IMG/VR virus record: IMGVR_UViG_2891407665_000020
DNA from: an uncultured virus (IMG/VR IMGVR_UViG_2891407665_000020)
Lineage: Duplodnaviria > Heunggongvirae > Uroviricota > Caudoviricetes
DNA: 64,000 nt
Direction: 5' to 3' (one strand)
The notes below the pieces were generated by a model. It was given only the letters and a program-made list of their open reading frames with translations, had not been told where the DNA came from and searched no databases. Made by a program: the position numbers and the translations under genes. This document shows, piece after piece, positions 34,806-52,026 of the stretch; the first letter of the stretch is position 1; each line of letters starts with the position of its first letter.

Positions 34806-35573
34806 GTGGTTACTATTAATATTTTTGCTATCAGCCCTGATTATATGGACGCACTCTATAAAGAGGCTATTTCTTTTGACTTTGCATTACAGGGGTATGG
34901 GAATCCGGATGCAGCGCTAAAGGGGTTGTGCTATACGAATATTTCGGATGTTATAGGGTTTCTTTATATGGCGAGCAGGCTTCCCAAAAATGTGGATGCC
35001 CTCCGACGGTTTTTGTTTGTGTGTGACAAGATGGCGTCTGATAATGGACTTACCTTTCTTTTCGCGCTGAATTCCAAACAGAATCCCTGGAATATGCTAG
35101 GACTGGGGGAATACACGAACTTGCGGTTTAGCACACTTACTGCCATAGATGATGTTACAGATACTCTAATAAAGCATGATATTTTTGGCAGCCTGCTTCT
35201 TTCGAGATTTGAGCCTTATGACCTTAGGGAAAAGCAGGAAATTCTGGACAAAAAGCAGCCGATAATACCTGTGCTGGAGTACAGGCCGGTTTTTTCAAGC
35301 CTTGTATTAAAAGTATTAGAACCGTCTGTTGGGTTAATGTCATTAACCCGAACATTGAAAGCGGACGCCATTTACTGCGAATTACTGCAGGTTTCCAGGG
35401 TTGCGTCGGATATACGCAGATTCGTTATAATGCGCCGTATGGGGATGGATACTGAGAGGTTGAAGAAATCGCTGGATAGAACAATTAATGATATTGATGA
35501 TCCGGCTTCCTATTGCAATTACAGGGCATTGCTACAACTGGCAGCAGAAGAGGAGGTGGCAAAAGTTGTATGA
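34806..35573 (+). CDS. Pseudo-receiver-domain protein
   Basis: INIFAISPDYMDALYKEA...FALQGYGNPDAALKGL...DVIGFLY follows the CheY-like beta/alpha pattern without the DD/D residues. Confidence 0.45.
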   Translation: MVTINIFAISPDYMDALYKEAISFDFALQGYGNPDAALKGLCYTNISDVIGFLYMASRLPKNVDALRRFLFVCDKMASDNGLTFLFALNSKQNPWNMLGLGEYTNLRFSTLTAIDDVTDTLIKHDIFGSLLLSRFEPYDLREKQEILDKKQPIIPVLEYRPVFSSLVLKVLEPSVGLMSLTRTLKADAIYCELLQVSRVASDIRRFVIMRRMGMDTERLKKSLDRTINDIDDPASYCNYRALLQLAAEEEVAKVV

Positions 35574-37194
35574 CTTAGACCTGATGCCTGAAGTCTCCGG
35601 CATCCTACAGGACAGGATGCTGACTGAGGAGCGCGATGTACTATATGTGCTAGAGATGTATAAATTCAAAACTCGCGATAATATTATCAGGATTTTAGAG
35701 AAGCATTACGCTGATACTGTTAATGAGAATTATTTTTCTGACGACGAGAAGCCTATCGTGCAATCTGTGGACAGTATCTGCCGGGACAGGAATTTTTCTA
35801 GCCTGGAGCATGAGTGCGGGGTATTGCTTGATGTTGCATCGGAGGACACGGTAAACGTTATTTGTGTCTACGGGGAGAGCTATAATAAAGCAAAAGTTGA
35901 GTTAGGGGTTCCCTATAAGTTCTTAAACACAATCTATGTTACCCCATACAATTATGCATTGCTGGAATCCGGCGGGAAGCCTCCTTCCTATGATGCGGAT
36001 TTACTGCTTAAACGGATTATCCTTGAGTGCGTCAACCGCAAGGGGACAGACTTACATCTAACAGTGCACCATGTAAACAAAAAACCGGTGTATAAGGTTA
36101 GGTACAGGCGCAATGGCATGTTGTGCGATATGGACCTTTTTGAGATAGACAGGCGGCTGAACAAGGAGATCATCAGCATCCTAATTAGCAGGAATACAAA
36201 CAAGGATTCCATTGATTTATTGCTTTCGGATGGGTTGACAGCGCTCGCACCTGATATTTTCAGGGACAAGAGCGTAGAACTCCGTGTTTCCGCAAACCGC
36301 GTACGTGATGGATACGAGTGCGTTGCCCGCATACAGAGGACTGATAATGTAACAATGAAGATAGAGCAGCTTGGGTTCCCTGCTAGTGTGCAGGATGACC
36401 TTCGTTGTTTAGCCAGGAAACAGTCTGGCATAACCTTAATAACAGGTCCTATACGAACAGGGAAGAATACAACCGCTTTTGCGATAGCAAACGAGATGGC
36501 TGGGCGCCCCATAAAGATTAAAAGTTTTGAATCACCTATTGAAGCTCTTATGGACTTCCCACAAGTCGATTATGCGGACGACCCTGCTAAGCTCAGGGAA
36601 GCAATAAAACTCGCCAAGAAGCAGGACGTTAATGTTGCATTCTTGAATGAGATACCGAATAAAGAGGTTGCATTTGCAGTAAAGGATTTAGTGAACTCCT
36701 CAGTACATGTAATCACTACTATGCATATAAACCGCATCTGGCATCTCCCTTACAAGCTTTACGAGTTTTACGGGGAGTCTTACAAAGACGTTATCTGCCA
36801 GATAAATGGTGTTATCAACCAGAAAATGTTCGGGGTTCTATGTCCCCATTGCCAGGATATTGTGCTTGCGTCCGACCTGCCGGATTCAAGAAAGTCTGCG
36901 CTTTTGATGCGATATGGCGTGAATACTGTTGCAGTGGCAAGGGGATGCAGTTTCTGCCTGGATGCAGAAACACATACACACGGAATTGTAGTGGGCAGTA
37001 ACCAGCCCTATACGGAACGGCTGATTTTTACCGAGGATGTGAGGAGTATGCTAATGTCCTGCAAGGAGCCTTATGAAATGGAAAATGTGATAAAGAATCA
37101 AGTAATGCAGAACCATCATGAGCTAGAGCAGGCGCTCGCTAACGGTATCAGGGATGGAAAACTTTCCACAGACGCATTAGATTCTGTACTTTAG
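35566..37194 (+). CDS. PilB/GspE-family pilus assembly ATPase, divergent
   Basis: GTDLHL, VRYRRNG, ELRVS, EQLGF, ITGPIRTGKNTT, FESPIE, FLNEI, TTMH, LCPHC...GCSFC zinc motif; GAGGAGG precedes the TTG at 35566. Confidence 0.88.
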   Translation: MYDLDLMPEVSGILQDRMLTEERDVLYVLEMYKFKTRDNIIRILEKHYADTVNENYFSDDEKPIVQSVDSICRDRNFSSLEHECGVLLDVASEDTVNVICVYGESYNKAKVELGVPYKFLNTIYVTPYNYALLESGGKPPSYDADLLLKRIILECVNRKGTDLHLTVHHVNKKPVYKVRYRRNGMLCDMDLFEIDRRLNKEIISILISRNTNKDSIDLLLSDGLTALAPDIFRDKSVELRVSANRVRDGYECVARIQRTDNVTMKIEQLGFPASVQDDLRCLARKQSGITLITGPIRTGKNTTAFAIANEMAGRPIKIKSFESPIEALMDFPQVDYADDPAKLREAIKLAKKQDVNVAFLNEIPNKEVAFAVKDLVNSSVHVITTMHINRIWHLPYKLYEFYGESYKDVICQINGVINQKMFGVLCPHCQDIVLASDLPDSRKSALLMRYGVNTVAVARGCSFCLDAETHTHGIVVGSNQPYTERLIFTEDVRSMLMSCKEPYEMENVIKNQVMQNHHELEQALANGIRDGKLSTDALDSVL

Positions 37195-37613: not shown

Positions 37614-38128
37614 AGAAAAAAATTATATGCATTATCCTGGCAGCTGCAACTGTAGCAGTCGCTTCCATTGGGGCAGCCCCCAGCGCAGTTAGCTTATTCC
37701 AAAATCTCAGGGATTTTAAAAAGCTGCAGTCAGACCTGAAAAAAGAGCAGCAGCAGCATAGCGATGCAAACAACAAACTAGCAGGAAAGGGAAGCCAGGG
37801 GGCAGCCAATGGTAATGATTTAGACAGCACGATCATCACAGCAGCTGTAGCAAGCGATGGGCAGGCCGTATTGGATTCCGTTACTGCTTACACTGTAGAG
37901 GATGGTATCTTGCGCAAATTAGCAGTCTTGGATAATGCTGCTGATGTGCCTAATTTACAAGGGAATGCAGATGTATTGGAGTATGCAGTAAGCACGAGTG
38001 ACACTGCGGTGTATTTAAAGGGACTCACAGGGACGCCAATTGTGTTCGATAAAATAACCGTGTTGCCATTAACAGGACAGGTTTATACTAGGGTAAGCCT
38101 GCAGAATGGAGGGAACGCGCATGATTAG
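37610..38128 (+). CDS. Membrane-anchored coiled-coil protein, PilO-like candidate
   Basis: N-terminal TM/signal, short coiled coil, small alpha/beta domain; near the PilB-like gene. Confidence 0.45.
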   Translation: MKKKIICIILAAATVAVASIGAAPSAVSLFQNLRDFKKLQSDLKKEQQQHSDANNKLAGKGSQGAANGNDLDSTIITAAVASDGQAVLDSVTAYTVEDGILRKLAVLDNAADVPNLQGNADVLEYAVSTSDTAVYLKGLTGTPIVFDKITVLPLTGQVYTRVSLQNGGNAHD

Positions 38129-39584
38129 ATACTATGTGGAGCTCGGCTCTGTTATAAAAACTTCCTTGTTTGATGATGAGTACTTAATTGCCTATGAAGA
38201 GTATAAATACAATGTCGGGATACTGAATACCTTGGCGTCACGGTTGACAGACAGTCATGCAGACTCTGCGATTGTTATTACCCATGGCACGCTTTATAAA
38301 GGTGAACTGGCGGAAAGCTATATGGCGTTTTCGTTGCCAATCAACGGGAACAAATACTATTGCAACCTGAATAAAATTGATGTCGATACCATGCTGTCAT
38401 TATTGGACAGGATCCATGTGAAGTCCGTGCGTGTCGTGGATAAGTTCGGGTATTATGAATCATTGTCTGCACAGGATAATGTCATTATTATTGATAAGGC
38501 TGCAGACCTGTACCTAATTTATGTAAAACAAGATGACAACAGACAGATTTCTTACGTGCCGAGCGCTGACCTTGAAGATGCTATCGTCAGGACAATGGCA
38601 AGGACCGGCATTACGAATGTCATTAACGCATTCAGTGAGTTTGTGAAGAATGACCGTCTCAGCGTCAAGAACCTGGAAGGGGTTGACCCTGATAAAGTGC
38701 AGTCCCTGCTTGCTGCTTTATCTACATGCTGTTATGCAGATTCAGAATTGTCGAGTAATTATGAGTTGAAAATTAATTCTGTAGATGTAACAGCTGCCCA
38801 GTCGACAAGGCTGGAGCTGCCACAAGAGGACAATATTAGTAATGCACAGAAGGAAAACGCCACCGCTGACGGATTTGATGGCCTTATTGAGTACGAGCCG
38901 GATGAGTTTGATGCGCCAAGCAAGAGTGAAGAAGAATTCTACAGTAACAGCATCACTGGCAGTGATAGCGCAAAGAACGCGGCAGGGGACAATTGTACAC
39001 CGTCGGGGATAGGTTCATCACAGGCGTGCGACGCAGGATCTGGAGAATCTGAAAGAATTACACGTGGAAGCAGTGACGATAGCGCAATTGAAGAGCAAGA
39101 TGATATCAGTATGGTCAACTTGGGAGAAAGAAGCGGAACAGAGAACCGTAAGCATTTTCCATTGGCTCCGATTTTAGCATTCTGCCTGGCAGCTTGCGTC
39201 TGTGGCACGGTTATACTCAAGATACAGGGCGATATTTGGGGGCGTAAAAGTATTTCGCTGCGCAATGAAATTGCAGACCTAAAAACATCCCGTGAATCCA
39301 TCGAATCAGTTCTTGCAGGCGGAGGGACAGCGGTGGAACTTAGTGATAAGGACGCCTCAATTTTAGAGAAGCTGGGGGCATTCTCCGTTGACGGATATTT
39401 AGGAGAGATCACTGTGAACAGAAATTCTTATGAAGTGCTGACATACCTCTATAATCAGGAGGACAGTAAGAGTGTAGAGGAGTCTATTAACAGTTACGCA
39501 CAAGTAGAACGTTCAGAGTTCTATGGCGTTTTGGATGTCATGGATAAAAGACTTTATAAATTTAAGTACACTTTAAAGAGATAG
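38121..39584 (+). CDS. PilM-PilN-like fusion candidate
   Basis: N-terminal alpha/beta domain (YYVELGS; VIIIDK...YLIYV), acidic linker, one TM, coiled coil, and a small C-terminal domain ending YKFKYTLK. Confidence 0.45.
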   Translation: MIRYYVELGSVIKTSLFDDEYLIAYEEYKYNVGILNTLASRLTDSHADSAIVITHGTLYKGELAESYMAFSLPINGNKYYCNLNKIDVDTMLSLLDRIHVKSVRVVDKFGYYESLSAQDNVIIIDKAADLYLIYVKQDDNRQISYVPSADLEDAIVRTMARTGITNVINAFSEFVKNDRLSVKNLEGVDPDKVQSLLAALSTCCYADSELSSNYELKINSVDVTAAQSTRLELPQEDNISNAQKENATADGFDGLIEYEPDEFDAPSKSEEEFYSNSITGSDSAKNAAGDNCTPSGIGSSQACDAGSGESERITRGSSDDSAIEEQDDISMVNLGERSGTENRKHFPLAPILAFCLAACVCGTVILKIQGDIWGRKSISLRNEIADLKTSRESIESVLAGGGTAVELSDKDASILEKLGAFSVDGYLGEITVNRNSYEVLTYLYNQEDSKSVEESINSYAQVERSEFYGVLDVMDKRLYKFKYTLKR

Positions 39585-39596
39585 GTGGTAAATGGC

Positions 39597-40961
39597 ATGA
39601 GATTGGCAGGATTTTACGGATTGACCGCCCCGTTTGTTATCCTTTTGTACCAGGAGGCCGGTGCGAAGAAATTGGCAGATTTTTGTGAAAAGCTTAACAA
39701 CTACAGCGATAAGGATAATATTGAATTTGCAAAATGCGAGCTTATGTATTTTAAGAAAGCTATCGACCGTATCCCGTTATTACGTAAATCTGAAATGGAT
39801 GAATACTTTACAGATGCTGAGGAGATAGCTTATTGCAATTGCAGTAAATTAAGCGGATATAAGGGCGATGCCGGCGTGCTCATGGGCAAGGTTAAGAGGG
39901 GAATCATGGTACGGGTGGCAGAAGAACTTTTGGATAGCAGTCTGAACAATTTTATTGCAGTGGAGCGTTTCAGTAATGTGAAGATACGCAATTGCATAGC
40001 AGATGCTGTTACGGATTTTATTGGCAGGGAAAGCTTTAGCATCGGGACTATACCCAGTGTGGCAAAGAAAATCTCACGAAAATTTATAAACAGACGTAAA
40101 ATGTGCAAGGACACTGCTGAGCTCGAGCGTCTTAATAAAAAGATTATGTCCGAGTTCAGAATAACACTTGAATGCTCTGACACGGTAGTGGTTAATGGTA
40201 ATACAGTTGTGTTAACAGATGATGAACGGAAAGTTTTACAGTATTTTGTGTGCCATAAGTGTGACATAGATACCATCATTAAACTGCTGAATACCAGTGG
40301 CGCCAATAGTGTGGAAATTTTTGGGTCAAGGTTTACTGACCTGATGCAGCGAAAACCAACCTACCTATTTAGCGTAGTGGCAAGGGAATTAAACCTTGGG
40401 GATTCCATGAAAGCACAGTTTCTCATAAAGAGCCATAATGATATTCTTGAGCAGCTTCTGGAGTTTAAAAGGCTATTTAATGAGAATATGGCATTGGTTA
40501 GCGAGAGTTGCGTGTTTGGGTTACAGCCTGATGAAGCGCTTGAGATTGTTGACAAGTTCCCGGGAGATGCCAGTGATATCAGGGCGCTCATAAACAGGAA
40601 TGCAATCTGCACTGAGAATCTAGATGAACAGACACTGCAGGCTGTTATGGAGCTTGGGAATATCATTTCAGGGATGGATGTAGAAAAGCTCAACCGCTGT
40701 TTCAGTGTATCGTTGACCGTAGCAGGATGGGAAGACTGCATAGATAAAATGAACAGCCTTGGCATTTATGGGTTGAATTTATACTCGCGGCATCTGTTCA
40801 ATAAATTCCTTGCAAATTCGACATTAAATCTGCTTGACAAGATTATAATCACGGAGCGGCTAAAGACGGAATTTGAGCATGTAATTTCAGAAATAGAAGC
40901 TTTACTTAATACTTTAAAACCGATAGGGGGGAGAGTAGATGAGAAACTTACACATCTTTGA
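39597..40961 (+). CDS. Degenerate sigma70-like protein with C-terminal extension
   Basis: Collinear matches to primary sigma factors: MYFKKAIDRIPLL (region 1.2), IAVERF (2.2), IRNCIADAVTD...IPSVAKKISRKF (2.4-3.0), LTDDERKVL...DIDTIIKLLNTS (4.1-4.2). Confidence 0.55.
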   Translation: MRLAGFYGLTAPFVILLYQEAGAKKLADFCEKLNNYSDKDNIEFAKCELMYFKKAIDRIPLLRKSEMDEYFTDAEEIAYCNCSKLSGYKGDAGVLMGKVKRGIMVRVAEELLDSSLNNFIAVERFSNVKIRNCIADAVTDFIGRESFSIGTIPSVAKKISRKFINRRKMCKDTAELERLNKKIMSEFRITLECSDTVVVNGNTVVLTDDERKVLQYFVCHKCDIDTIIKLLNTSGANSVEIFGSRFTDLMQRKPTYLFSVVARELNLGDSMKAQFLIKSHNDILEQLLEFKRLFNENMALVSESCVFGLQPDEALEIVDKFPGDASDIRALINRNAICTENLDEQTLQAVMELGNIISGMDVEKLNRCFSVSLTVAGWEDCIDKMNSLGIYGLNLYSRHLFNKFLANSTLNLLDKIIITERLKTEFEHVISEIEALLNTLKPIGGRVDEKLTHL

Positions 40962-41970
40962 TGTGTCTGGCGTTGTTTATTATGGCACAACAGGTTCAGC
41001 AGCGAGCAATATAGCAAACACGTTCCGGAAATTCCCGATTGGCGGAATAAAAACATTAATGTCAAGGCTGGCAATGGCATTGGCTGAGAACGGTGATGTT
41101 TTGCTTGCGTTTGACAGCAGGTCATTCAGGAAAGATCTGCTTGATGTGTACAAGGGCGACCGCGCCCCCAATAGGTCAGTAAGCGCTCAGCTGGATTTTT
41201 TATACGACCAGCTGGCGAAAGCAGGGGTTCCCGTTGCTAAGTATGATACATACGAGGCTGACGATATTATAAGCTGGGCAGTAAAGGATTATGTAAGCGC
41301 GTATGATTATATTACCATCTGCTCCAATGACCACGACGTTGCGCATAATGTACAGAACAAGGTTATCATGAAACCATTCAGCAGGAACGATGCTATTATT
41401 TCTGCAATTAATTTCGAGTACACTGTGCAAAAAGGGAAACGCATACAGTTTAACACCATTAGTGCATACAAAGTTTTTATGGGTTGCAGCAGCGATCGGA
41501 TAGCAGTATTTAAAAGCGCTAAGTATAATTCGGAATCTTTGTATAGGTGTTTTTTGAACTTTCTGCGTGAGCACAATTTAGATGGGAACTACGGCGCTAC
41601 GACGGATAAAAAGACATTGGCAATTTTCATTAATACCAGCGGTCTCTTTACGGAAAGTGAAAAGGAAGAGCTTTACAAGAGAATAGACCTTGTGTATCCC
41701 GCCGAGAAACCTGCATGTATTTCACTTCGTCCTGTTAATAAGAACATGCTAGATTTAAGCTCAATTGCGGAAATCTTAATCATGTGCAGGGACAGAGCTT
41801 CAGTGAAGAATCTGGGGGTTGCTTATTTTGATTTATCAGACAGTTTCCTACATCTCTTGGACAGCTACAGCCAAAGCCTAAACAGCGGGGCGTACTCTGT
41901 CGATCGTAACTTGGAAGTAGACCCCAGCTATGAGCTTGATTCTGCAACATTCTTTTTAAAGGAGTTTTGA
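40939..41970 (+). CDS. 5'-3' exonuclease / flap endonuclease (Pol I N-terminal-domain family)
   Basis: IFDVSG, AFDSRSFRKDLLDVYKGDR, YEADDII, CSNDHD, MGCSSDRI. Confidence 0.9.
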   Translation: MRNLHIFDVSGVVYYGTTGSAASNIANTFRKFPIGGIKTLMSRLAMALAENGDVLLAFDSRSFRKDLLDVYKGDRAPNRSVSAQLDFLYDQLAKAGVPVAKYDTYEADDIISWAVKDYVSAYDYITICSNDHDVAHNVQNKVIMKPFSRNDAIISAINFEYTVQKGKRIQFNTISAYKVFMGCSSDRIAVFKSAKYNSESLYRCFLNFLREHNLDGNYGATTDKKTLAIFINTSGLFTESEKEELYKRIDLVYPAEKPACISLRPVNKNMLDLSSIAEILIMCRDRASVKNLGVAYFDLSDSFLHLLDSYSQSLNSGAYSVDRNLEVDPSYELDSATFFLKEF

Positions 41971-41971
41971 T

Positions 41972-42643
41972 ATGAATGTGACATACGAAAGGATACTTCA
42001 GCTGTTCCTGATTGCGCACTCAGATTCACGTATAATTGATGCATTCGCTGTGCACGAAACACCGCTTACTATCATGTACAGCGATTATGTGAAGAGCCAG
42101 CTACATTTGAATGCCGTTTCAAGTTTTTATTCGGTAACACGCAGACGTAATATTTTTGAGTATGCTAAGGCCCTGGAATACCTGGAAGGGGACCTACGAA
42201 ATTTAGGGGATGCACAGAAAGTACTGACATACTTCTACGAAGATATTTCAAAGTTTTTAATGAAAAATAAGAAAGAAGTAAAAGTAAGTTTGGTTGTCGA
42301 TGCTGACTTAAATATACCCGCACAGCATGTTATCTTTGAGGCTGTTAAGGGGATGATGCTAGATATACTTTCCTGTGCTGCTGATAATGCTCCGGAGGTG
42401 CGTAACGTGTTAAGCGAGGTGAATGCATCCATACTGTATGCTGCGCAACAGAGGCAGGGAACCTTATTTGATAAGTTGGAGAAGTTTGAATACTCCGATA
42501 TTTTCGATGAGTATTCACTAAGCGCAGAAAGTGTGAATGATATCTGCTCGCGTATTAACAATATTGTATACGCTAGTATTTTTAAGAAATTTGCTATTTC
42601 TGGCAAACAGGTAAGCGAATTAAGAGAGGTGATTATAGAATGA
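41972..42643 (+). CDS. Hypothetical protein
   Basis: 223 aa, AAGGAG RBS; contains QGTLF. Confidence 0.75.
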   Translation: MNVTYERILQLFLIAHSDSRIIDAFAVHETPLTIMYSDYVKSQLHLNAVSSFYSVTRRRNIFEYAKALEYLEGDLRNLGDAQKVLTYFYEDISKFLMKNKKEVKVSLVVDADLNIPAQHVIFEAVKGMMLDILSCAADNAPEVRNVLSEVNASILYAAQQRQGTLFDKLEKFEYSDIFDEYSLSAESVNDICSRINNIVYASIFKKFAISGKQVSELREVIIE

Positions 42644-43278
42644 AATTTAATGTGGACAAGGGCTGTGGCAGGTTTATTGCCAATGCTATACGGCAGATGA
42701 TTTATGTTAAAAGATACGTGGTACGCCCGGTTGCCTTCAAGGTCGGTATAGACACGAACATACTTACTGCTGGAAACCTTTTTATTGAAGATATGATTAA
42801 GTTTTCGTCGGATTTAAGTTCGTTGCGTTTCGCCTATGATGGTCCGGGAAGCAAATCTGACAGGATTATAAGGCGCGACTGTGTCTGTCATGGGGAACTC
42901 CGTTCCCGCGACTTGGAGGGTGACGGTATCCGGATAGTGGGCGGGCGGTGCAAAGATGATGTACTATTACATACGGTAGCCGGTGATAATACAGACTTTA
43001 CTATTTCCATCATCTTTAGGAACGCACAAGGTGGTTATACGCATGACGAGAATAAATACGCCATTATGGCCAGCTTGAACGGTGCGGAATTAGATAGTTC
43101 CTATGTGGTTATGTCAAGCCGGCATTCAGATGTTATTTCTGTAAAAACCGGTGTCTCCACCGAGATGGACTGTGATGTGGTGGATATTTCTGCAGAAGTG
43201 TACACCGGAGAACCAGAAGATGCCATTGTTAGCGCCGCGTGTGAATCTATGAAATATCTGCTAGGGCAAATAAGCTAA
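42640..43278 (+). CDS. rpoA: RNA polymerase alpha-subunit N-terminal-domain homolog, lacking the alpha-CTD
   Basis: KGCGRFIANAIRQ (cf. RGFGxTLGNALRR), IEDMIKFSSDLSSLRF (cf. xEDVxEIILNLKxLRF), GELRSRDL, ISIIFRNAQGGY (cf. MELxVxxGRGY), EPEDAIVSAA (cf. xPxEALxxAA); stops at aa 212. Confidence 0.72.
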   Translation: MKFNVDKGCGRFIANAIRQMIYVKRYVVRPVAFKVGIDTNILTAGNLFIEDMIKFSSDLSSLRFAYDGPGSKSDRIIRRDCVCHGELRSRDLEGDGIRIVGGRCKDDVLLHTVAGDNTDFTISIIFRNAQGGYTHDENKYAIMASLNGAELDSSYVVMSSRHSDVISVKTGVSTEMDCDVVDISAEVYTGEPEDAIVSAACESMKYLLGQIS

Positions 43279-43345
43279 CGAATTAAGGCTGGAATACGCC
43301 ATTAGAGATACTATAAGCAATTAATGTAAAAAAGGAGGAAGCCTT

Positions 43346-45016
43346 ATGATAACATTGGGCTATTTACAGGAAAGAGGCTTAATTTCGGATGTATTGAAGC
43401 TTTGTGATACGGAAACCCGCGTATTGTGTAAGGCTTCCGAATTTGAGTCCAAGAAAGACGTTGGTTACTGCGATAGTATCGTAGTAATTGATGGTTTCAG
43501 GTGGGTTGCATCTGATACGCCACTTGCGGACAACCCAGCCATCGTTTATTCCTCGGATGGTAACAGTTTATGCTGCTGGAACAGGGATGAACAGAAACTT
43601 ATAAAAAAGGGCATCCAGGATGGTATGCTCGTAGTCACAGAAGTGGTAAAAAATAATTATAAAAAGGAGAATGAAACTATGAGTGATCTTAACAATCTCA
43701 ATCTCGACGACCTGGGGGATGTTAGCATTGACAACACCTTGAGTAATCTGGAAGCTTTCGGAGAAGCGCCTGTAGCAACCGGCAGCATTGTTCCGAAAGA
43801 GAACTTCGAATCCGCAAACCAGAAGTTTTTCCTTCATGCTAAGGAAAATGGGCGTTTCCATGCTTTTGTTACTAAAACACCGACAGCGGTTAAAGCAAGC
43901 AAAACCAGCGTAAAACTGCTGGACGCTAATGGCTGCATCCAGCTTGATCCGGATAACCCACTGACACCGGAAGAGCAGAATACTTTCGACAAGTCCAAGA
44001 AGGCGCCGCTGTCAAAGATTCTGAAAGAACAGGTTGTTACTTTCCGTGAGGCAAAACCAGGCCAAATTGTAGGCGGAATTATTTCTTACCCGGCTGGTAT
44101 CCAGTCAAGCGTTTCTTTTATCGATGACGTGCTTGCTAAGAAAGAGGTTTCTTTCGATCCGAATAATAAAGAAAAGGTCATTAAAGTTCTTCCGTATGAG
44201 CAGCTACTGGCTACCATCGCTGCAATCTTCCATGGTCAGATTCGTGAGGACGACGCCATTATGGGCAAAGAAGCTTCCTGGCTGCAGATTTCCAAGAAAC
44301 AGATTAAGAAGAAAAAAGCTGATGCAGATGTGACGGGCACGGCACAGCCGGCGCAGTATCGCCCGACACTTATTTTAAGGAAAGACACTGCAACAAGAAA
44401 ATCCATGGTTACAGAAAAGAACTATGTTCCTATGGCAGTGTACAAGACGGCGTCACAGCAGCACCTGACGGCTGAGGAAGCTGATGGGCTGAACCTGCAT
44501 GTTGAGTCCGTAATCAAGAATAAAGGGATCTACGACGCGCTGTCAGACTCCACGAAGGCTGATATTAAGTGGGATGATGCAAACAGCGAAGTACGGGTAA
44601 GCTCCGAATACTTCAAGACAAAAGGCCAGTGCAAGCCTATCGTTGTTCCGAGGTACTTTGACAAGACCTTGACCCTGACGGATGTTCTTATCCCGGTCAA
44701 GACCAGGAAAGTGAATAAGAAAGACCCGGCTAAGTTTACGTACAGCTATGTTACTTACAAGCTGGACGACCCAGAGAACGGGCCGCTGGCTAACCCGAAT
44801 TACCGTGATGTAATCGAGAAGTCCGGTCTTTCCCTGGAAGTGTTCGCTGAGGAAGCGAGGAAGCTGACACGCAGGAAGAGCAAAAAGGATGACGAGGATA
44901 CTTCGGTAGATACATACCTGTCTGCAATGCAGGGTGATATCAACAACAAGTCAATGTTTGAGGGCGCAATCATTGATTCCGCAGAATTGACAAAGATTCT
45001 CAAAGGAATTGCCTAA
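43346..45016 (+). CDS. Lysine-rich hypothetical protein, probably abundant; second in-frame start at 43679
   Basis: 556 aa, AAGGAGG RBS, upstream TATAAG, downstream terminator. Confidence 0.85.
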   Translation: MITLGYLQERGLISDVLKLCDTETRVLCKASEFESKKDVGYCDSIVVIDGFRWVASDTPLADNPAIVYSSDGNSLCCWNRDEQKLIKKGIQDGMLVVTEVVKNNYKKENETMSDLNNLNLDDLGDVSIDNTLSNLEAFGEAPVATGSIVPKENFESANQKFFLHAKENGRFHAFVTKTPTAVKASKTSVKLLDANGCIQLDPDNPLTPEEQNTFDKSKKAPLSKILKEQVVTFREAKPGQIVGGIISYPAGIQSSVSFIDDVLAKKEVSFDPNNKEKVIKVLPYEQLLATIAAIFHGQIREDDAIMGKEASWLQISKKQIKKKKADADVTGTAQPAQYRPTLILRKDTATRKSMVTEKNYVPMAVYKTASQQHLTAEEADGLNLHVESVIKNKGIYDALSDSTKADIKWDDANSEVRVSSEYFKTKGQCKPIVVPRYFDKTLTLTDVLIPVKTRKVNKKDPAKFTYSYVTYKLDDPENGPLANPNYRDVIEKSGLSLEVFAEEARKLTRRKSKKDDEDTSVDTYLSAMQGDINNKSMFEGAIIDSAELTKILKGIA

Positions 45017-45022
45017 TCGTGT

Positions 45023-45057
45023 GAAAGAGGGGTGTATGCACCCCTCTTTCTGCTTTT
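45023..45057 (+). terminator. Intrinsic terminator
   Basis: GAAAGAGGGGTG-tatg-CACCCCTCTTTC then TGCTTTT. Confidence 0.85.
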
Positions 45058-45102
45058 ATAGGCATTTGTGCGGAACTGTCAGAATCAGTAGGAGAAATTT
45101 GT

Positions 45103-46314
45103 ATGATTATGCAATTTAGAAATATTGTGGGACAATCAGGTTCAGTTATTCTGCTGCAGCGGGCATTATCGAACGGTAATTTCCCAAAGCTGACAATATT
45201 GGCTGGTTATCATGGGACAGGGAAATCCACGACAGCGCTGCTCTCTGCTATGTCCATTTTGTGTGAAAACCCATCGCAGGGTGAACCCTGTTTAGGATGT
45301 GGAAGCTGTAAACAGCTGCAAAATGCTATAAGTAAGGATATCCCTACCTGTAACTTCATGCGCGTAAATATGGCTGAGAAAAATAGCAGGTCTGATTTTG
45401 GGGAATTGGTTAAAGAGATATTTGTCTTGCAGCCATCCGCCAAGAAATGTGTGTATGTTCTAGAGGAGATGCACGCCGTTAAAGACGAATACTTGCAAAC
45501 CATGTTACTCGAGAGGATTGACGCGATGCCTCCTAATGTCCATATTATTATGACAACTACAGAGTTAAATAAGTTAATAACGCCTTTACGAAGCCGTGCG
45601 AGGGTATTCAGGTTCACCAGGATCAACCAGAATGAGTCAGAAGCGCTTCTGACTCAATGGTGTGCCAATAATTATGTGAGAATCCCTAAAGAGGTCTCAA
45701 GCCTTATCATAAAAAGTGCGGGGGGCGTGCCACGTGAGCTAATCAACCTGGCCGAATTTGTATCAGAGAATAGTGTAACACAGGAAGAACTTATCAACTA
45801 TTTGAATTTGATTGATATTGATGAAATTATAGAGTTGTTTACGGCATTTACAGAGGCACAGATGACTTCCAGCATCATAGCAGCTGATAAAATGTTAAAA
45901 GCACATGAAAAAAGTACTGTTGTGCAGCAGATAAAATCTTTCATACTCGAGGTAATATACCTTATGGAAGGCAATATAACTGGCGATTTCACTAAGGAGC
46001 AGGCAGCGATTGTCAAAGAAGTGTTCAGGAACACAGCATTAGTGCAGCTTGCATCAGTTGGGGAGAAATTAAATGCATATTCTTCTGAAAACGATATAAA
46101 ATTTGCTTTTTTAAAGATGCGGCAAATAATGAGAAATAAATCTATTAAAGACATAGTAAGGGATGACAGGAAAGCTGCCACTTTGCAGCGCAAGGAAGCC
46201 AATTCCGTATTTAAAGATAAAAAAGCTGTTGCACAGGCTGTTTCTAATGCAACAGCCAGCCTTGACAAAGAAACTTTCCTTGAATCCATGAATATGTTTG
46301 GGGGTGATAACTAA
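45103..46314 (+). CDS. dnaX: DNA polymerase III gamma/tau-like clamp-loader ATPase
   Basis: FRNIVGQ, LAGYHGTGKST, CENP...PCLGCGSC zinc motif, VYVLEEMH, IMTTTE, PLRSR, GGVPRELINL. Confidence 0.9.
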   Translation: MIMQFRNIVGQSGSVILLQRALSNGNFPKLTILAGYHGTGKSTTALLSAMSILCENPSQGEPCLGCGSCKQLQNAISKDIPTCNFMRVNMAEKNSRSDFGELVKEIFVLQPSAKKCVYVLEEMHAVKDEYLQTMLLERIDAMPPNVHIIMTTTELNKLITPLRSRARVFRFTRINQNESEALLTQWCANNYVRIPKEVSSLIIKSAGGVPRELINLAEFVSENSVTQEELINYLNLIDIDEIIELFTAFTEAQMTSSIIAADKMLKAHEKSTVVQQIKSFILEVIYLMEGNITGDFTKEQAAIVKEVFRNTALVQLASVGEKLNAYSSENDIKFAFLKMRQIMRNKSIKDIVRDDRKAATLQRKEANSVFKDKKAVAQAVSNATASLDKETFLESMNMFGGDN

Positions 46315-46778
46315 TGAGGGCTGTAATTGGCAGGGAAGTCGATATAAACCAGCCATTGAATTTAAGGCGGCTATCTCCTTGGCAGAAGGTGATAGTCGCT
46401 ATACGGAAAGAACTGTCCGAAAGCTCTTTTTTCCTAAATAGTAAACGCGAACGAATGCAGGAAGCACATAAGGCTAGGATAGTCCGTGAAGACAAAGTGA
46501 AAGAAATGATCCTTACAGAGATATACCAGGAGCTTGTAAAAGGGGCGTCCGGCAAGGGCAGTGACCGCGTACAGAAGATTGTCATCGCTGTGAACCCAGA
46601 ATTTAAGGATGTAATTTTTGATTCCTGCAATAGCGAGGGGGAAGTTGTAAGGCAGGGCATTTTTTCGCATAGTGATTTTTCACAGTATGAGATTGTAGCT
46701 GTTAAAGAGAACGCGGATATACGCAGGGCTTTTTCAAAGATGCCTTATCTGTTTGAAGTATCACGAAAACTAATTTAG
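46314..46778 (+). CDS. Hypothetical protein
   Basis: 154 aa, TAATG coupling to the dnaX-like gene. Confidence 0.75.
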   Translation: MRAVIGREVDINQPLNLRRLSPWQKVIVAIRKELSESSFFLNSKRERMQEAHKARIVREDKVKEMILTEIYQELVKGASGKGSDRVQKIVIAVNPEFKDVIFDSCNSEGEVVRQGIFSHSDFSQYEIVAVKENADIRRAFSKMPYLFEVSRKLI

Positions 46779-46788
46779 GAGGTGCGAT

Positions 46789-49700
46789 GTGAAAAAGAAA
46801 GCAATGTTAGCTGCCATGGCCGCTTGCCTGCTGTCCGGTAATCTTGCTGCTTATGCGCCACTGAATGTGCTAGCAACAGATATCAAAACTACGCAGGATG
46901 GTTTCGAGGCGGCTGATGTGCCCTTTGTTACCTGGGCAAATACAATGGCAAGCGCTAAAGCCTCTTCCTGGGGCGATGTACGGGGTTTTTACTCTGTGAA
47001 TAACAACAATAAGGGAGTAGACTTCAAAATAACGAAAAAGCAGTTTAATACGATAACGAGCTCCATAGGTTACGCAAAGGACAGGGATACTTATTTTAAT
47101 GAGGTTCCTGACCGGACGATGGGCGGGTTGTCAGCAACCAAGTCTTACTTAATCGAGCATAATTTCTTACAGAGAAGAGTTGCATTAAGTTACGGCAGGA
47201 GAGGGATAGAAGCAACGCTAGACGGGAGCGGTGAGGACTTTGACCTTATAAACCGTATGGACAAGACTGAGCTGTATACCATGCTGTATAAAATTCTGTA
47301 TGGCACGGTTGAATCCCGAACAATCATCTGGCGGACGGACGCATTTAGAAATGTGGATGGGAGTATGCAAAGGGTCAGCAGCCAAAAGAACTATAAAACC
47401 ACGGATGGCCAGGCAGTACACGCTATTTTTGATTCTGATTACAATGTGTATGCACACCCTGATGTGTATGAACTGTACCTTTCGGAACTTTTAAATAAAG
47501 GACTGATAGAGCAGGGTGAGATAAGTACCGCGAAGAGCAGTTTCCTTACAGAGTACAATCTGATGCAGCGCAGTGATTATAAGCCCCCCTGGCATCCATC
47601 ACAGCGCCCAGTTATTATCAGTGGGGATGAACCTGTGGAAGGTACTAACTATCTAGGGAGTTCTGTATCACTTAATAGGCTTGATGGCAGCAGTGTTTTT
47701 GATGCTGATGTTGAGCAATCCCCTGCGGGGAAGAGCAGAACGATTATTATGGAAAGTGAACAGCCTGACTATTTTAGGCAGGAAAATTTAACTACCATAG
47801 ATGCATTAAAGATTATAGAAACCATGCTCCGTGGAACCGAAAAGGATATGACAAAGACAGAAGCCAATACGGTTGCTTACAAGTACGGGACTAGGTATCT
47901 TGGTTCATTGGACTCCAGCGCAAAGGGTACTGTAGCTTTTTTGATTGCGAAAGGTATCCTGAATTTTGAAGATGATTCTGAGTATATTGATTTGTACCAG
48001 GACTTTACATACGAGACGGCGTATAAGCTGCTGTACCGTGTGGCGAATAAGGATGCACGCTATGATTTTTCTAAGATACAGCTAACAGACAATGAAGTGT
48101 TCTGGCAGGAGCAGGGGTTTGCGGAAGACCGTGTATCATTTGTGGATGGCAGCGATCTGCCTTATATGAAGATTTTGGAAGACAGCGAGAGTTTTGCCAG
48201 TTACGACGATAGGGTAAAGAAATCAGCAACGGTGGCAAAGGTAGAGGGGGATGGGGCTGAGGAACCGCCCTCGGAGTCGGAAACGGAGACAGAGACGGTA
48301 TGGGAACAGGATTCCCTTCTTTATGTGCAGTGCATAGACAATGACACCAACCAGCCGATAAGCAATGCTACAATCTCGGTTTATGCGGAAGACGGCACAG
48401 CCGTTGGTGAGAGCGTTACTGACCAGCAGGGTGTGGTAACCTTCCAGTTAAGGGAAGGCACTTATTATTTCGAGCAGACAGACGTACCTGACGACTATGT
48501 GCTTAACGACTACTATAACAGTGTCAGCTTTAGCCAGGACGGTGAAATCCGGAAATTCAGGATTAGAAACAGCCCTGCTGAGAAAGGAAATTTAACTGTA
48601 AGTGTACATGAAGAAGATGCCGGTGTACCGGTGCCCGGGGCGTACGTAGAGGTTTACGACAGCGAAGGGGAAATAGCCGAGAGCTTCTTCTATGGGGAAA
48701 GCGTGCACAAATCTACGCTTCCTTATGGCGTCTATACAGTAAAGGTGTCAAGTGTACCAGAGGGTTACGAGAACCCGGAGCCAGCCTTGACAAAAACAAT
48801 AAAACTGTCGAAGTATAACAGGAATGCGAGCGCTGACTTTACAATAGCGCTTAAGAGCACGATTGTCGGGAACGCAGCGCAATTTATCAACAACCTGTTT
48901 GCTGATACTGCTGTATACGCGGCGAATAAGAAAGCTTATGTCATTAAACTCCTGTTGGAGGATAAGAATGGGTACTCTTACAGCTATGGGAGCACATCAA
49001 TTAACGCAACAACAAAGAAATCAGACAATGATGATTTAGCGGCTGATGTGGCAACCAAGGTTTATGCCGGCAGCAGAATGTACCAGGTGACTTTCAAGAT
49101 TGAGGCAGCTTCCAGGGATGACGCATTGAGCATCGTCCAGTCTAAGCTAAGGGTCTCTGGGGTCACGGAACAAAGCTCTGTAATAGGCGTAACAGAAATA
49201 GAGGGTTCCGATGGCGTTAAGTCAACAATGGTATCCGCAGATGATGTGCGCAGTGGAATGGCAGATGTTAAGGTTATTAACAATAATACCCTTATGAATG
49301 TTAAAACCGGCGCCACAGCTATGATTCTGCCTGAGCAGGGGTATGCGCTTGTTGGCAATAAGATTATAAAGTCCGATAACCTTGTAGCTGTGACTGACAG
49401 CAACAAGGTTTATTATAATTTGGAGATTATCTGTGCTATTCTCAGCAATGCATCCATTAAAAAGATTAATGGTGCAACATCATTAGTGAGTAAATCCATT
49501 AAGAAAGAAAAACTGTTTGATGTTTACTCTGAGAACGGGACTAAGTTAGAGTCTAATTATGCAGCAACTTTTGACAGTGTCGTATACGAAGAAAAGAATG
49601 AGGGCGGCACCATACGTAAAAAAACATTGATGTATAATATGGACTCTATGTCCCGTGGTCTTTCATGCCTGACGCGTACGTTTAAAAAGCGTGTGAATAT

Positions 49701-52026
49701 CGGTGCAGAGAAAAATGCATCATCCGATGTTACGATAATTGTTAAGTGGAACTTTATAGTACCTAATATAGACTCTTTAGAAGTGCAGGGAATCAAGAGC
49801 ACAGCACAATCCGGTACAATCACTTTCCAGGATGCTGCTGATATTCTAAACACCGAACCAAAAGACAGTGTACTGAGAGAGTGGTGGAATTATAATCTTG
49901 ATATGTCAAATGCCCTGGCAAACTTCATGTATGGTACAAAAGGAACCCAGTATGTTACATGCGGATATTTAGTGCCAAGCGTGACAGTTTTAAGCTCTGC
50001 CGGGGGCAACCGCAAAGGGAGCGTCAGTATCTCCGGTGATAACCAGGGGGTATCCTGTTCTTTAAAGAGCTTATCTGACAGCCAGCTCAATAAGCTCTTC
50101 AAGGAGTTGAGCCTGTCCCCCTCATACTTAAAGAAATACCTTGGAAGCACGAAAAGTAATTGGTGGGAATCTTACTACAATGTCAGTAAATACGATAGCA
50201 GTTTCATAAAGTCACTGATGAGCAAGGCTTCGTTCAGGAATTTAGCAGGCTCGGAAGTCTACTATGGGCAGGATGCCAGCCAGGCGACTACAGATGGGCA
50301 CGTGTTTGGCAACGCGGAGTACTTGATACTGAATAATGGCACCGTTTATGCTAATGCGGAAACGAATACTGATTTCACGCTGGATAAAAACGGGCATAGG
50401 ATTACTGTCAGGAACTTCTCCACAGGTGGCGTTGAGATGGTTGTTGGGAAAGGGACGCAGGTCGTTGTCAATAGCGGCGGTCAGGAAGCAACCTTTGAAT
50501 ATTGCTCCACAGAAGCCATTGGCGAAGGGATTTACCATAAGATGCGACTGGTCGCTACGGATGGCAGTATGCCTGTGTACTTTTCAGGGTACCTGGACAG
50601 CAAAGGGTGCAAGTCTGTTGAGCAGTTACAGAAAGCCGCGGAAAATCCAGAGAACTACAAGACACAGCTTGGTATGTCGTTATACGATTATGAGAAGAAC
50701 CTTTATAAATTCCTCGGGATGCAGGGTGTGCCGGTTGCGAACATGAATGTTTCAAAACGTTTCGCACTTAACAAGGATAGCCTGGGGAATGGTATTCTTG
50801 GCTCTATATACGCCGATTTTTATAATGATGGCGTATCTGGCGTGCGGTTTTGCAGGTATGGCGATAAGTCACTTACAGATGTAGCCACGCAGGATCTAGC
50901 AGTCATGGAAAACGGCTCCTGTCTCATAAAGTCCTTAATCAGTGCGAATGTCTTTGTGTATGTGCCCACAAATAATTATTATTTTGCGAAAGATAGCGCA
51001 GGCGCTGTGAAATTATTTGCAGGTTCGGATGTTGGCGTCCTTAATACAAGGATTTACTACACCGGGCTTAACAATTCTTTGCGTGATTCCATTTTAGCAG
51101 AGTCAGCAGGGACTATCCCTGTAAACCAGATAGCATCTGGTTCGAAAGTCTATGTAGGCGGGATACTGTTCACAAAGATGCAGGATGGCAACCTTGTTGC
51201 AGGTCCTGTTAAATCCCAGAACAGCCTCATACTTGGTGTTTTGTCCGCGATCGACAGTAATAACGATGAGTCGCTGAAATCTTGTTTATTGCAGACTTTT
51301 GGGGCACAGTGTGTTATTGTTGGGACGCGCAATGTGTCTTTGCAGTCATTTATAACCGATATCGCGGTTGGCCCTCAGAACGGAGTGCAGGAAAAGAAGA
51401 CATTATTCCGTGAGAAATCTGGTTACCAGTATGTAGTGAGTGCGAAAAAATGCAAAGACTACCAGAAAGGGAGTGTCCCTAATCTGATTAATTACAACCT
51501 GTCAATACGTGTGGATGACGCACTGTTATGCCGTCCTATCGATAGCCAGGGTTTGCTGTATCAGATGCTTTACTGTTCGGATGCTTATGTGAGCGGGCTT
51601 GGGAATCTTCCATTTTATCCCGAGTATCTTGGCGAGGACCGTAACAGCACCTTAAATGTTTATTGGGAGAAAACAGCATATGCAATCCATCAGTATGTCA
51701 ATTCAATGAAAGATAGCTTTTTGGAGGATTACCGTAAGGCATGGGAAGGCGATTTCATTTCAATGTGTAAAATGATTGTTGCCAGCATCTTACTATACCT
51801 TATGATAATTAGCTGGATTTGTTTATTTTTCTTGAAATTTGGGGTTGGTAGGCGTTTCTTTGAGGCTCTGGCTATGCCAACAGGGATTTCCAGGAATGGG
51901 ATTGATTTGTTCAAGATTTTGTCCCTTGGGCTGTTTCACTATGATGACATACCCAGCGTTAGTAGAGTTGCCCTTATGAACTTTGTGTTCTATGGCATCA
52001 TGTTTATAATACTTGATATTTTATAG
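46789..52026 (+). CDS. Giant cell-surface protein: signal peptide, SLH-like motifs, Cna-B/SpaA-like repeats, copper-amine-oxidase-N-like domain, C-terminal TM helices
   Basis: VAFLIAKGIL...FTYETAYKLLYRV and two similar SLH-like segments; PISNATISVY...TDQQG...GTYYFEQTDVPDDY and VPGAYVEVY...GVYTVKVSSVPEGY; GYALVGNKII...NKVYYNLEIIC; two C-terminal hydrophobic helices. Confidence 0.75.
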   Translation: MKKKAMLAAMAACLLSGNLAAYAPLNVLATDIKTTQDGFEAADVPFVTWANTMASAKASSWGDVRGFYSVNNNNKGVDFKITKKQFNTITSSIGYAKDRDTYFNEVPDRTMGGLSATKSYLIEHNFLQRRVALSYGRRGIEATLDGSGEDFDLINRMDKTELYTMLYKILYGTVESRTIIWRTDAFRNVDGSMQRVSSQKNYKTTDGQAVHAIFDSDYNVYAHPDVYELYLSELLNKGLIEQGEISTAKSSFLTEYNLMQRSDYKPPWHPSQRPVIISGDEPVEGTNYLGSSVSLNRLDGSSVFDADVEQSPAGKSRTIIMESEQPDYFRQENLTTIDALKIIETMLRGTEKDMTKTEANTVAYKYGTRYLGSLDSSAKGTVAFLIAKGILNFEDDSEYIDLYQDFTYETAYKLLYRVANKDARYDFSKIQLTDNEVFWQEQGFAEDRVSFVDGSDLPYMKILEDSESFASYDDRVKKSATVAKVEGDGAEEPPSESETETETVWEQDSLLYVQCIDNDTNQPISNATISVYAEDGTAVGESVTDQQGVVTFQLREGTYYFEQTDVPDDYVLNDYYNSVSFSQDGEIRKFRIRNSPAEKGNLTVSVHEEDAGVPVPGAYVEVYDSEGEIAESFFYGESVHKSTLPYGVYTVKVSSVPEGYENPEPALTKTIKLSKYNRNASADFTIALKSTIVGNAAQFINNLFADTAVYAANKKAYVIKLLLEDKNGYSYSYGSTSINATTKKSDNDDLAADVATKVYAGSRMYQVTFKIEAASRDDALSIVQSKLRVSGVTEQSSVIGVTEIEGSDGVKSTMVSADDVRSGMADVKVINNNTLMNVKTGATAMILPEQGYALVGNKIIKSDNLVAVTDSNKVYYNLEIICAILSNASIKKINGATSLVSKSIKKEKLFDVYSENGTKLESNYAATFDSVVYEEKNEGGTIRKKTLMYNMDSMSRGLSCLTRTFKKRVNIGAEKNASSDVTIIVKWNFIVPNIDSLEVQGIKSTAQSGTITFQDAADILNTEPKDSVLREWWNYNLDMSNALANFMYGTKGTQYVTCGYLVPSVTVLSSAGGNRKGSVSISGDNQGVSCSLKSLSDSQLNKLFKELSLSPSYLKKYLGSTKSNWWESYYNVSKYDSSFIKSLMSKASFRNLAGSEVYYGQDASQATTDGHVFGNAEYLILNNGTVYANAETNTDFTLDKNGHRITVRNFSTGGVEMVVGKGTQVVVNSGGQEATFEYCSTEAIGEGIYHKMRLVATDGSMPVYFSGYLDSKGCKSVEQLQKAAENPENYKTQLGMSLYDYEKNLYKFLGMQGVPVANMNVSKRFALNKDSLGNGILGSIYADFYNDGVSGVRFCRYGDKSLTDVATQDLAVMENGSCLIKSLISANVFVYVPTNNYYFAKDSAGAVKLFAGSDVGVLNTRIYYTGLNNSLRDSILAESAGTIPVNQIASGSKVYVGGILFTKMQDGNLVAGPVKSQNSLILGVLSAIDSNNDESLKSCLLQTFGAQCVIVGTRNVSLQSFITDIAVGPQNGVQEKKTLFREKSGYQYVVSAKKCKDYQKGSVPNLINYNLSIRVDDALLCRPIDSQGLLYQMLYCSDAYVSGLGNLPFYPEYLGEDRNSTLNVYWEKTAYAIHQYVNSMKDSFLEDYRKAWEGDFISMCKMIVASILLYLMIISWICLFFLKFGVGRRFFEALAMPTGISRNGIDLFKILSLGLFHYDDIPSVSRVALMNFVFYGIMFIILDIL

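Follow-up and report, generated by a model that had tools for sequence, protein, structure and literature searches.

Jumbo-phage RNA polymerases (RNAPs) are made up of split beta and beta' pieces and, in the excerpts available of the two accounts, include no alpha- or omega-like product (PMC2919709; PMC7598289). Cells of the Helicobacter and Wolbachia type carry beta and beta' in one polypeptide, which works with alpha, and the yeast cytoplasmic linear plasmid pGKL2 encodes Orf6, a reduced Rpb2::Rpb1 fusion of 982 amino acids (both from PMC2919709); other lineages with a fused beta-beta' are described in part of PMC11515920. As far as the excerpted sources go, the RNAPs of poxviruses and African swine fever virus (ASFV) keep Rpb3/Rpb11-like platform subunits (PMC13374769), and Francisella has two non-identical alpha genes, alpha1 and alpha2, in one genome (PMC3294249). 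In the literature surveyed, which included excerpts of PMC5512222, PMC7824862 and PMC6814731 and had subscription journals and supplements outside its scope, we came across no bacterial plasmid or integrative and conjugative element reported to carry alpha and a fused beta-beta'. Here we analyse a stretch of 64,000 nucleotides from IMG/VR record IMGVR_UViG_2891407665_000020 (the window), equivalent to G000:C1:184354-248353 on the minus strand of a 310-kb contig of the host assembly G000, and in particular a short alpha-like gene within a mobile element that extends beyond the window on both sides. We assign a probability of roughly 0.7 to the reading that the alpha-like protein is the assembly platform of an RNAP encoded by the element itself.

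Results

The alpha-like gene

The gene and its putative ribosome-binding site (RBS) are as follows.

42640..43278, plus strand: RNAP alpha amino-terminal domain (NTD) homologue of 212 amino acids without the carboxy-terminal domain (CTD), from the family profile, AlphaFold2 model, Foldseek and hhalign
42624..42632, plus strand: Shine-Dalgarno-like AGAGAGGTG, 8-16 nucleotides before the alpha ATG, read directly from the sequence

This open reading frame (ORF) encodes a real, conserved alpha-NTD homologue that has neither linker nor CTD. Its ATG shares four nucleotides (ATGA) with the stop of an upstream ORF of 223 amino acids, an overlap that suggests translational coupling of the two. When the 212-residue protein was searched alone against all PDB chains, a single match was returned, RpoA of 4noi, at E 0.074; a profile of four close relatives matched alpha in the PDB at E 0.0044. 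HMMER, run exhaustively over 1.84 billion cluster representatives (E≤1e-3), yielded 115 related representatives of 77-242 amino acids, near-constant in length and 25-54% identical, with no cellular alpha of ~320 amino acids among them. Absence of the CTD is, on the sequences gathered, a trait of the whole alpha-like family.

We aligned 110 sequences, comprising the query and 109 of the 115 matches; P0001, 99% identical to the query, and the short fragments P0047, P0057, P0059, P0083 and P0111 were dropped. The resulting profile gave E 3.8e-17 with solved alpha chains in the PDB and spanned virtually the entire NTD, positions 5-202 pairing with alpha residues ~28-231 (positions 7-202 with chain residues 57-252 in the 4noi match, E 3.8e-17). 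Among the matches listed for this profile, 56 of 59 were bacterial alpha, two were Rpb11 and one was a hypothetical protein. Rpb11 reached only E 0.26-0.30 with no significant stretch, and every significant match was a bacterial alpha; the best matches were thus not to D/Rpb3 or L/Rpb11, which speaks against membership in the archaeal and eukaryotic Rpb3(D)/Rpb11(L) platform subunits.

A hidden Markov model search against RNA_pol_A_bac and RNA_pol_L, suggested in a preliminary description of this DNA, gave a divided answer. The single protein matched 0 Pfam families at E≤1 and 0 NCBIfam families, whereas among the 110 family members RNA_pol_L was matched by 38 and RNA_pol_A_bac by two at E≤0.1. 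By these scores, the CTD-less alpha family is outside current family models. At least 90% of its members conserve R18, P30, D51, G131 and N138, and 4noi has the same residues at the positions aligned with R18, P30, E50-D51 and G131. The second arginine of the LRR motif in 4noi and 9n9p is replaced by glutamine in the family consensus.

Comparison of the family with the host RpoA of the same genome by hhalign gave a probability of 97.2% (E 3.6e-11, 17% identity). Since the alignment covers only residues 36-235 of the 327 in host RpoA, with alpha-like residue 212 at about host residue 235, the protein stops at the start of the host linker/CTD; the host CTD (Pfam, 251-316) lies beyond the alignment. 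PF03118, the alpha CTD family, was not found in the element, and its sole match over the cut-off in the genome is host rpoA. The preliminary description had read this ORF as an alpha-NTD collinear over the whole domain, lacking the CTD and placed outside any ribosomal-protein operon, and it proved right in each respect: element alpha is flanked by genes for a flap nuclease and a clamp loader, whereas host rpoA lies on a different contig in the order S11-S4-rpoA-L17.

AlphaFold2 run on the 110-sequence alignment produced a model with a predicted local distance difference test score (pLDDT) of 93.5 and a predicted template modelling score (pTM) of 0.88, superseding a poor model built with four relatives only (pLDDT 57.5). 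In the model, helices at residues 10-23 (N-terminal) and 193-211 (C-terminal) stand on either side of a beta-rich insert. In a Foldseek comparison with the PDB, every row listed was an RNAP entry, with E down to 3.4e-13, and the alpha matches had TMq of 0.63-0.73 and identities of 13-19% to chains of 206-307 residues. The predicted structure thus confirms a two-domain alpha-NTD fold with terminal dimerisation helices.

Searches of several nucleotide collections returned little. A related-locus search with an 11-row family alignment found no relative in the genome or viral contig collections, and in the metagenome contig collection only one identical contig of 1,089 bp; megablast of 38000-47000 and tblastn of alpha found no match in PLSDB and the phage collection.

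Catalytic chain and cleavage factor

A scan for NADFDGD-containing or beta-like ORFs, which the preliminary description had proposed, revealed one fused beta-beta' chain on the contig and strand of alpha. This chain and a Gre-like factor are listed below.

G000:C1:261706-269964, minus strand (the alpha strand): fused beta-beta' of 2752 amino acids, from Pfam domains and NADFDGD, 56 kb upstream of alpha
G000:C1:180597-181100: GreA-like factor of 167 amino acids, full-length and divergent, ~3.3 kb past the window end (NCBIfam greA 80 bits, cut-off 139)

The beta-beta' gene lies 13-22 kb upstream of window position 1 and encodes Rpb2_45, Rpb2_6 and Rpb2_7 followed by Rpb1_2, Rpb1_4 and Rpb1_5. 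NADFDGD occurs once in the element, in this frame, which also holds the sole Rpb2_6 and Rpb1_2 matches of the whole assembly. Among proteins of 1,513-4,816 amino acids, 258 clusters are related to it at E≤1e-3; most have 2,400-3,000 residues, and their contigs are often 100-300 kb long. Few are named, and these bear the label 'hypothetical protein' or RNAP beta/beta' labels. Across an alignment of 48 members, NADFDGD is invariant at every position but the F, which is conserved in at least 90%. When the core of the chain was compared by tblastn with PLSDB and the phage collection, the matches were mostly cellular-type rpoB/rpoC in records filed as plasmid or phage. Weak matches to the core (~24%) were also seen in hypothetical proteins of three Vibrio phages of ~187 kb (H33-H35).

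The chain scored 425 and 400 bits against NF007172 and NF011417, the models of cellular fused beta-beta', for which the cut-offs are 5372 and 4632, and 381 bits against NCBIfam rpoC (cut-off 963). It does not belong to the cellular fused lineage as judged by these equivalog cut-offs, and in a second genome, G166, the fused chain is not the sole catalytic chain. No rpoB or rpoC besides the fused chain was found in the G000 assembly (94.9% complete, 111 contigs) by tblastn at E≤10 or by Pfam, although it does contain host rpoA and an omega-like gene (matching the Rpb6 family). Because the fused chain is far from the cellular models and G166 has both genes, we consider it more likely that host rpoB and rpoC are missing through incompleteness of the assembly. 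We also considered the fused chain as the host's own enzyme, a possibility that we reject on account of the very low cellular-model scores and the separate rpoB and rpoC of G166.

A second element and genome surveys

No short alpha was present in 40 close relatives of the host, which had host rpoA only (0/40); a sample of the order contained two in 400 genomes (G166 and G358), and a sample of the class, with 399 of 400 genomes scored, added none. Six class-sample matches at E≤1e-18 were frames of 318-336 amino acids, which are full-length host alphas of small genomes. These host alphas, from genomes of 0.8-1.6 Mb (G473, G561, G587 and G762, f78; G459 and G753, f69), scored E 1e-19 to 1e-21 on the element-alpha profile, compared with ~1e-12 for the host alphas of the window host's relatives; these scores may point to where the family came from, or may reflect composition.

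The G166 genome (98% complete) carries a fused beta-beta' frame of 2591 amino acids on its short-alpha contig, 61 kb upstream of alpha, and its host rpoB (1316-residue frame) and rpoC (1191-residue frame) are separate genes on another contig. Of the 121 ORFs in the G000 element, 42 have matches on G166:C1, strictly collinear over ~120 kb at 22-48% identity, and a GreA_N match stands at the syntenic place (G166:C1:134090-134242). The two elements have in common the order flap nuclease, small ORF, alpha, ORF of ~570 amino acids, clamp loader, ORF of ~150 amino acids and surface protein of ~1,700 amino acids. In G166 the element adjoins an integrase, followed by MiaB, MutS, MutL, MiaA, TGT and fab genes. 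The hosts of alpha-carrying elements belong to different families (f1, f21, f6). The alpha of G358 (G358:C35:9327-9899) has one in-frame TGA, which could represent a pseudogene, a sequencing error or recoding.

Genes around alpha and initiation factors

Alpha lies in an abutting, co-directional run of genes with the following features.

39585..40961, plus strand: ORF of 458 amino acids, earlier called sigma-like, in the same run as alpha and 1.7 kb upstream of it; no sigma similarity
40939..41970, plus strand: 5'-3' exonuclease or flap-nuclease-like gene (Pfam 5_3_exonuc_N, E 2e-16; syntenic match in G166)
41972..42643, plus strand: ORF of 223 amino acids, no family (no Pfam, PHROG or NCBIfam match)
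43346..45016, plus strand: ORF of 556 amino acids, no family (no Pfam, PHROG or NCBIfam match), with a strong RBS, directly 3' of alpha
45023..45050, plus strand: intrinsic-terminator-like hairpin with a 12-bp stem, seven G-C pairs and a T-rich tail (consensus match only)
45103..46314, plus strand: clamp-loader gene (DNA_pol3_delta2/AAA; Pfam E 9e-17, PHROG 'clamp loader' E 1e-28; syntenic G166 match)

The G166 counterpart of the 223-residue ORF (L038:7757-8299) is very divergent and encodes 180 amino acids, with a YFYEDI motif common to both; from sequence and position, this protein is a candidate for a further RNAP-associated component. At the place of the 556-residue ORF, which is followed immediately by the hairpin, G166 has an ORF of 587 amino acids.

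The preliminary description had placed a sigma-like gene in an operon with alpha. A co-directional ORF does stand there, but its product of 458 amino acids shows no similarity to sigma: Pfam detected none in it or in four of its relatives, PDB sequence and profile searches likewise detected none, and the ESM Atlas returned nothing usable for it or for the 556-residue ORF. Alignment by hhalign gave probabilities of 0.4% with an extracytoplasmic-function (ECF)-type sigma of the element and 0.09% with host sigma-A. Relatives of this ORF sit on contigs of 93-142 kb. The ECF-type sigma, of 202 amino acids with Sigma70_r2 and r4, is encoded at G000:C1:163916-164524 and may be accessory rather than a core initiation factor. 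This sole recognisable sigma is not common to both elements.

The 4.5-kb stretch around alpha is present in mouse gut or faeces metagenome runs of 14 studies, several of them RNA libraries. Assembled contigs from four metatranscriptomic runs (two studies) cover 38000-48000 at ≥95% identity, and 56 of the 59 placed RNA-library contigs are at ≥99%. Single contigs span alpha and the 556-residue ORF. In two runs, contigs over one or both of these genes (42645-45751) have depths of 100 (X16) and 45 (X18) against ~4-17 for flanking contigs, with the caveat that contig depth cannot rank genes, and one such contig ends at 45030, within the hairpin. These observations hint, weakly, that an abundant transcript truly exists here.

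The host element

By Pfam, ordinary chromosomal genes occupy ~105-143 kb of the G000 contig (L21, L27, Obg, RNase E/G, rRNA-modification enzymes and the his operon), and two recombinases delimit the block that contains the window.

G000:C1:143,087-144,769: large serine recombinase, bordering the element after the chromosomal genes
G000:C1:293,776-294,690: tyrosine recombinase, at the other end of the ~150-kb block

Between them lie ~150 kb of co-directional genes, most without a known family. The replication and repair genes include two family-A DNA polymerases, a DnaB-like helicase, primase domains with a Toprim primase, a clamp loader, an NAD-dependent ligase, a flap nuclease, and RecJ-like, UvrD-like, Mre11-type phosphoesterase and SNF2-like genes, with the DnaB-like, SNF2-like and NAD-ligase genes outside the window. 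From this gene content, the element looks as if it carries its own replisome and repair set. Loci of this kind are at window positions 17099-18883, 22043-22825, 30852-33209, 33341-34741 and 45103-46314, and at G000:C1:253603-257628.

Partition genes of the ParA and TubZ types are also encoded; the TubZ-like tubulin and ParA are at G000:C1:155777-156892 and 279996-280880, and a chaperone of the Hsp70 family is at C1:172056-173831. In an integrated element, partition genes and Hsp70 hint at an extrachromosomal phase. Transfer-type ATPases (FtsK/SpoIIIE and PilB/GspE-type) accompany a sortase, a signal peptidase, cell-wall hydrolases and several surface proteins of 1,500-2,400 amino acids, the majority of which contain SpaA or TQ ester-bond domains; as a group, the surface proteins, sortase and ATPases suggest an apparatus for cell-to-cell transfer or adhesion. 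Surface and transfer loci are found at window positions 46789-52026, 53347-57765, 14898-17075 and 35488-37194 and at G000:C1:146808-151514 and 280887-288116. We recognised no VirB4-type family in the element, and a PHROG scan at E≤1e-6 of 119 of its 121 ORFs (those of at least 90 amino acids) gave no match to capsid, portal or terminase families.

Given the recombinases and housekeeping genes at the borders and the lack of phage structural families, we regard the element as integrated in the chromosome in this assembly rather than as a plasmid or a recognisable prophage; by its gene content, it resembles an integrative and perhaps conjugative element of very large size. The plasmid label of the preliminary description is therefore not supported, as the contig continues into the chromosomal genes listed above and has no PLSDB match. 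A comparison of the element ends for direct repeats that could be att sites yielded one 14-mer and no exact borders. Relatives of alpha and of the 458-residue ORF occur on contigs of ~93-150 kb, compatible with an element of this size, and those on contigs of 130-150 kb may be compatible with an excised circular form.

Discussion

The preliminary description had offered, as one of two options, that the element builds its own multisubunit RNAP with beta and beta' encoded elsewhere. This option is now supported, as a fused beta-beta' is encoded in the same element and the pair recurs in G166. We envisage an alpha reduced to its dimerisation and insert domains, two copies of which would pair through their first and last helices, by analogy with cellular alpha. 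The dimer would form the platform on which the single-chain beta-beta', with its NADFDGD intact, folds and is held. In E. coli, the second arginine of the LRR motif is important for beta binding, and its replacement by glutamine would thus fit an interface adapted to a different beta. An enzyme without linker and CTD would be unable to use UP elements or activators that depend on the alpha CTD, so promoter choice would have to rest on one or more initiation factors. Together with the GreA-like cleavage factor and the replisome, such an RNAP would make the ~150-kb element largely independent of host transcription, for instance once it is excised or has reached a new cell.

Several observations weigh against this scheme. 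Dimerisation of the alpha-like protein, and its binding to the element beta-beta' rather than to host subunits, are predicted from homology with cellular alpha. Co-occurrence of alpha and beta-beta' is seen in two contiguous elements only, those of G000 and G166; in the order sample of 400 genomes, G358 yielded the alpha but no fused beta-beta', and G316 yielded a fused beta-beta' (1807-residue frame) but no short alpha. We interpret these two genomes as uninformative on linkage rather than contrary, because their assemblies are broken into 500 and 160 contigs. A search of the element for an omega-like gene gave none, the ECF-type sigma has no Sigma70_r2 counterpart on G166:C1, and no initiation factor conserved across both elements was found, the 458-residue ORF not being detectably sigma-like. 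The RNA-library contigs may hold DNA, and presence there does not equate to transcription. Finally, jumbo-phage multisubunit RNAPs function without alpha, according to the excerpted account (PMC2919709), and alpha is thus not strictly needed by the RNAP of a mobile element.

The other option of the preliminary description, that the CTD-less alpha enters host RNAP as a homodimer or as a heterodimer with host alpha, appears unlikely, and less likely than an RNAP of the element's own. Contacts with UP elements and class I activators would be lost, so that host promoters are damped and element promoters favoured. The protein does fold like the host alpha-NTD and can be aligned with it over its full length, exactly the CTD has been lost across the whole family, and E. 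coli alpha truncated of its CTD can still join the core enzyme. The protein and the host alpha-NTD are only 17% identical, however, and a residue of the LRR motif is changed; a hijacker should track host alpha, whereas this family is kept across hosts of f1, f21 and f6, and both contiguous elements encode a cognate beta-beta'.

Use of the alpha-NTD fold outside RNAP, for instance as a dimeric scaffold for replication or transfer machinery, seems to us quite improbable. Although alpha sits amid replication genes (flap nuclease, clamp loader) and away from beta-beta', between two ORFs without assigned function, it keeps residues of cellular alpha (R18, P30, E50-D51 and G131) and belongs to an element that conserves an RNAP catalytic chain and a Gre factor; to our knowledge, a non-RNAP role of this fold is without precedent. 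Least probable is a decaying, non-functional remnant of a captured rpoA. The missing CTD and the TGA of the G358 relative might be read in this way, but the conservation data contradict it: an RBS precedes an intact frame that looks translationally coupled to the ORF before it; the 115 representatives are near-constant in length, and their identities of 25-54% exclude assembly duplicates of one sequence; the deep alignment gives a very confident fold; and the gene holds a syntenic position in an element diverged to 22-48% identity.

Returning to the alpha-like protein as the platform of an element-encoded RNAP, we favour, with somewhat less assurance, a broader reading in which widespread, integrative, non-phage elements of ~130-160 kb in gut Clostridia-like bacteria carry a complete bacterial-type transcription core (alpha-NTD dimer, single-chain beta-beta' and Gre) plus a full replisome. 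On the beta-beta' side this family is represented by 258 clusters (90% identity), and on the alpha side by 115 (50% identity). If this is true, these would be the first non-phage bacterial mobile elements autonomous for both replication and transcription, with the first mobile-element RNAP of bacteria to retain an alpha platform, and the CTD-less alpha would mark an RNAP lineage deeply diverged from all cellular ones. A large block of gut-microbiome DNA would then be transcribed from uncharacterised promoters, and a natural minimal alpha2-beta-beta' core without CTD would be at hand for studies of RNAP assembly and promoter use. The enzyme may be insensitive to host regulation and to antibiotics that target RNAP, and reconstructions of RNAP evolution would gain a new branch of deep divergence. 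Current annotation pipelines overlook the alpha, with its 0 Pfam and 0 NCBIfam families, and leave the beta-beta' relatives as 'hypothetical protein'.

Measured against known systems, the element alpha is closest in form to the NTD of bacterial RpoA (PF01193 RNA_pol_L and PF01000 RNA_pol_A_bac; 4noi, 1bdf), with which it has in common the two-domain fold, a collinear alignment and sequence motifs. It differs in having no linker or CTD, in its structural-alignment identity of only ~14-19%, in scoring below the Pfam and NCBIfam thresholds, in its location outside the S11-S4-rpoA-L17 cluster and in the glutamine that stands for the second arginine of LRR. Both Francisella alphas are chromosomal and serve a single cellular core enzyme, as far as the excerpted account tells, whereas the alpha described here is on a mobile element. 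The two Francisella proteins are also reportedly both full-length. Lineages with a cellular beta-beta' fusion keep a full-length alpha as well, unlike the element; moreover, the element chain lies far below the NF007172 and NF011417 cut-offs and, in G166, exists beside separate rpoB and rpoC.

Among mobile entities, jumbo phages of the phiKZ and AR9 type resemble the element in having divergent beta/beta'-like chains of their own. The element, in contrast, has one fused chain of 2752 amino acids together with an alpha-NTD, and no capsid, portal or terminase match among 119 of 121 ORFs. The plasmid pGKL2 is, like the element, non-viral and equipped with its own fused two-barrel RNAP, but it is eukaryotic and the excerpt describing it mentions no alpha/Rpb3-like subunit; the element enzyme is full-sized, of bacterial type and accompanied by an alpha-NTD. 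Poxviruses and ASFV share with the element an alpha-like platform without a bacterial-type CTD, although, in the portion of the source available, theirs originates from an Rpb3/Rpb11 heterodimer, as opposed to the bacterial alpha seen here. None of the systems compared combines an alpha-NTD, a complete fused beta-beta' and Gre on a non-phage integrative element. In the literature surveyed, the RNAPs of bacterial mobile elements are either single-subunit enzymes or multisubunit phage enzymes without alpha, and the element enzyme, if our reading is true, would constitute a third kind.

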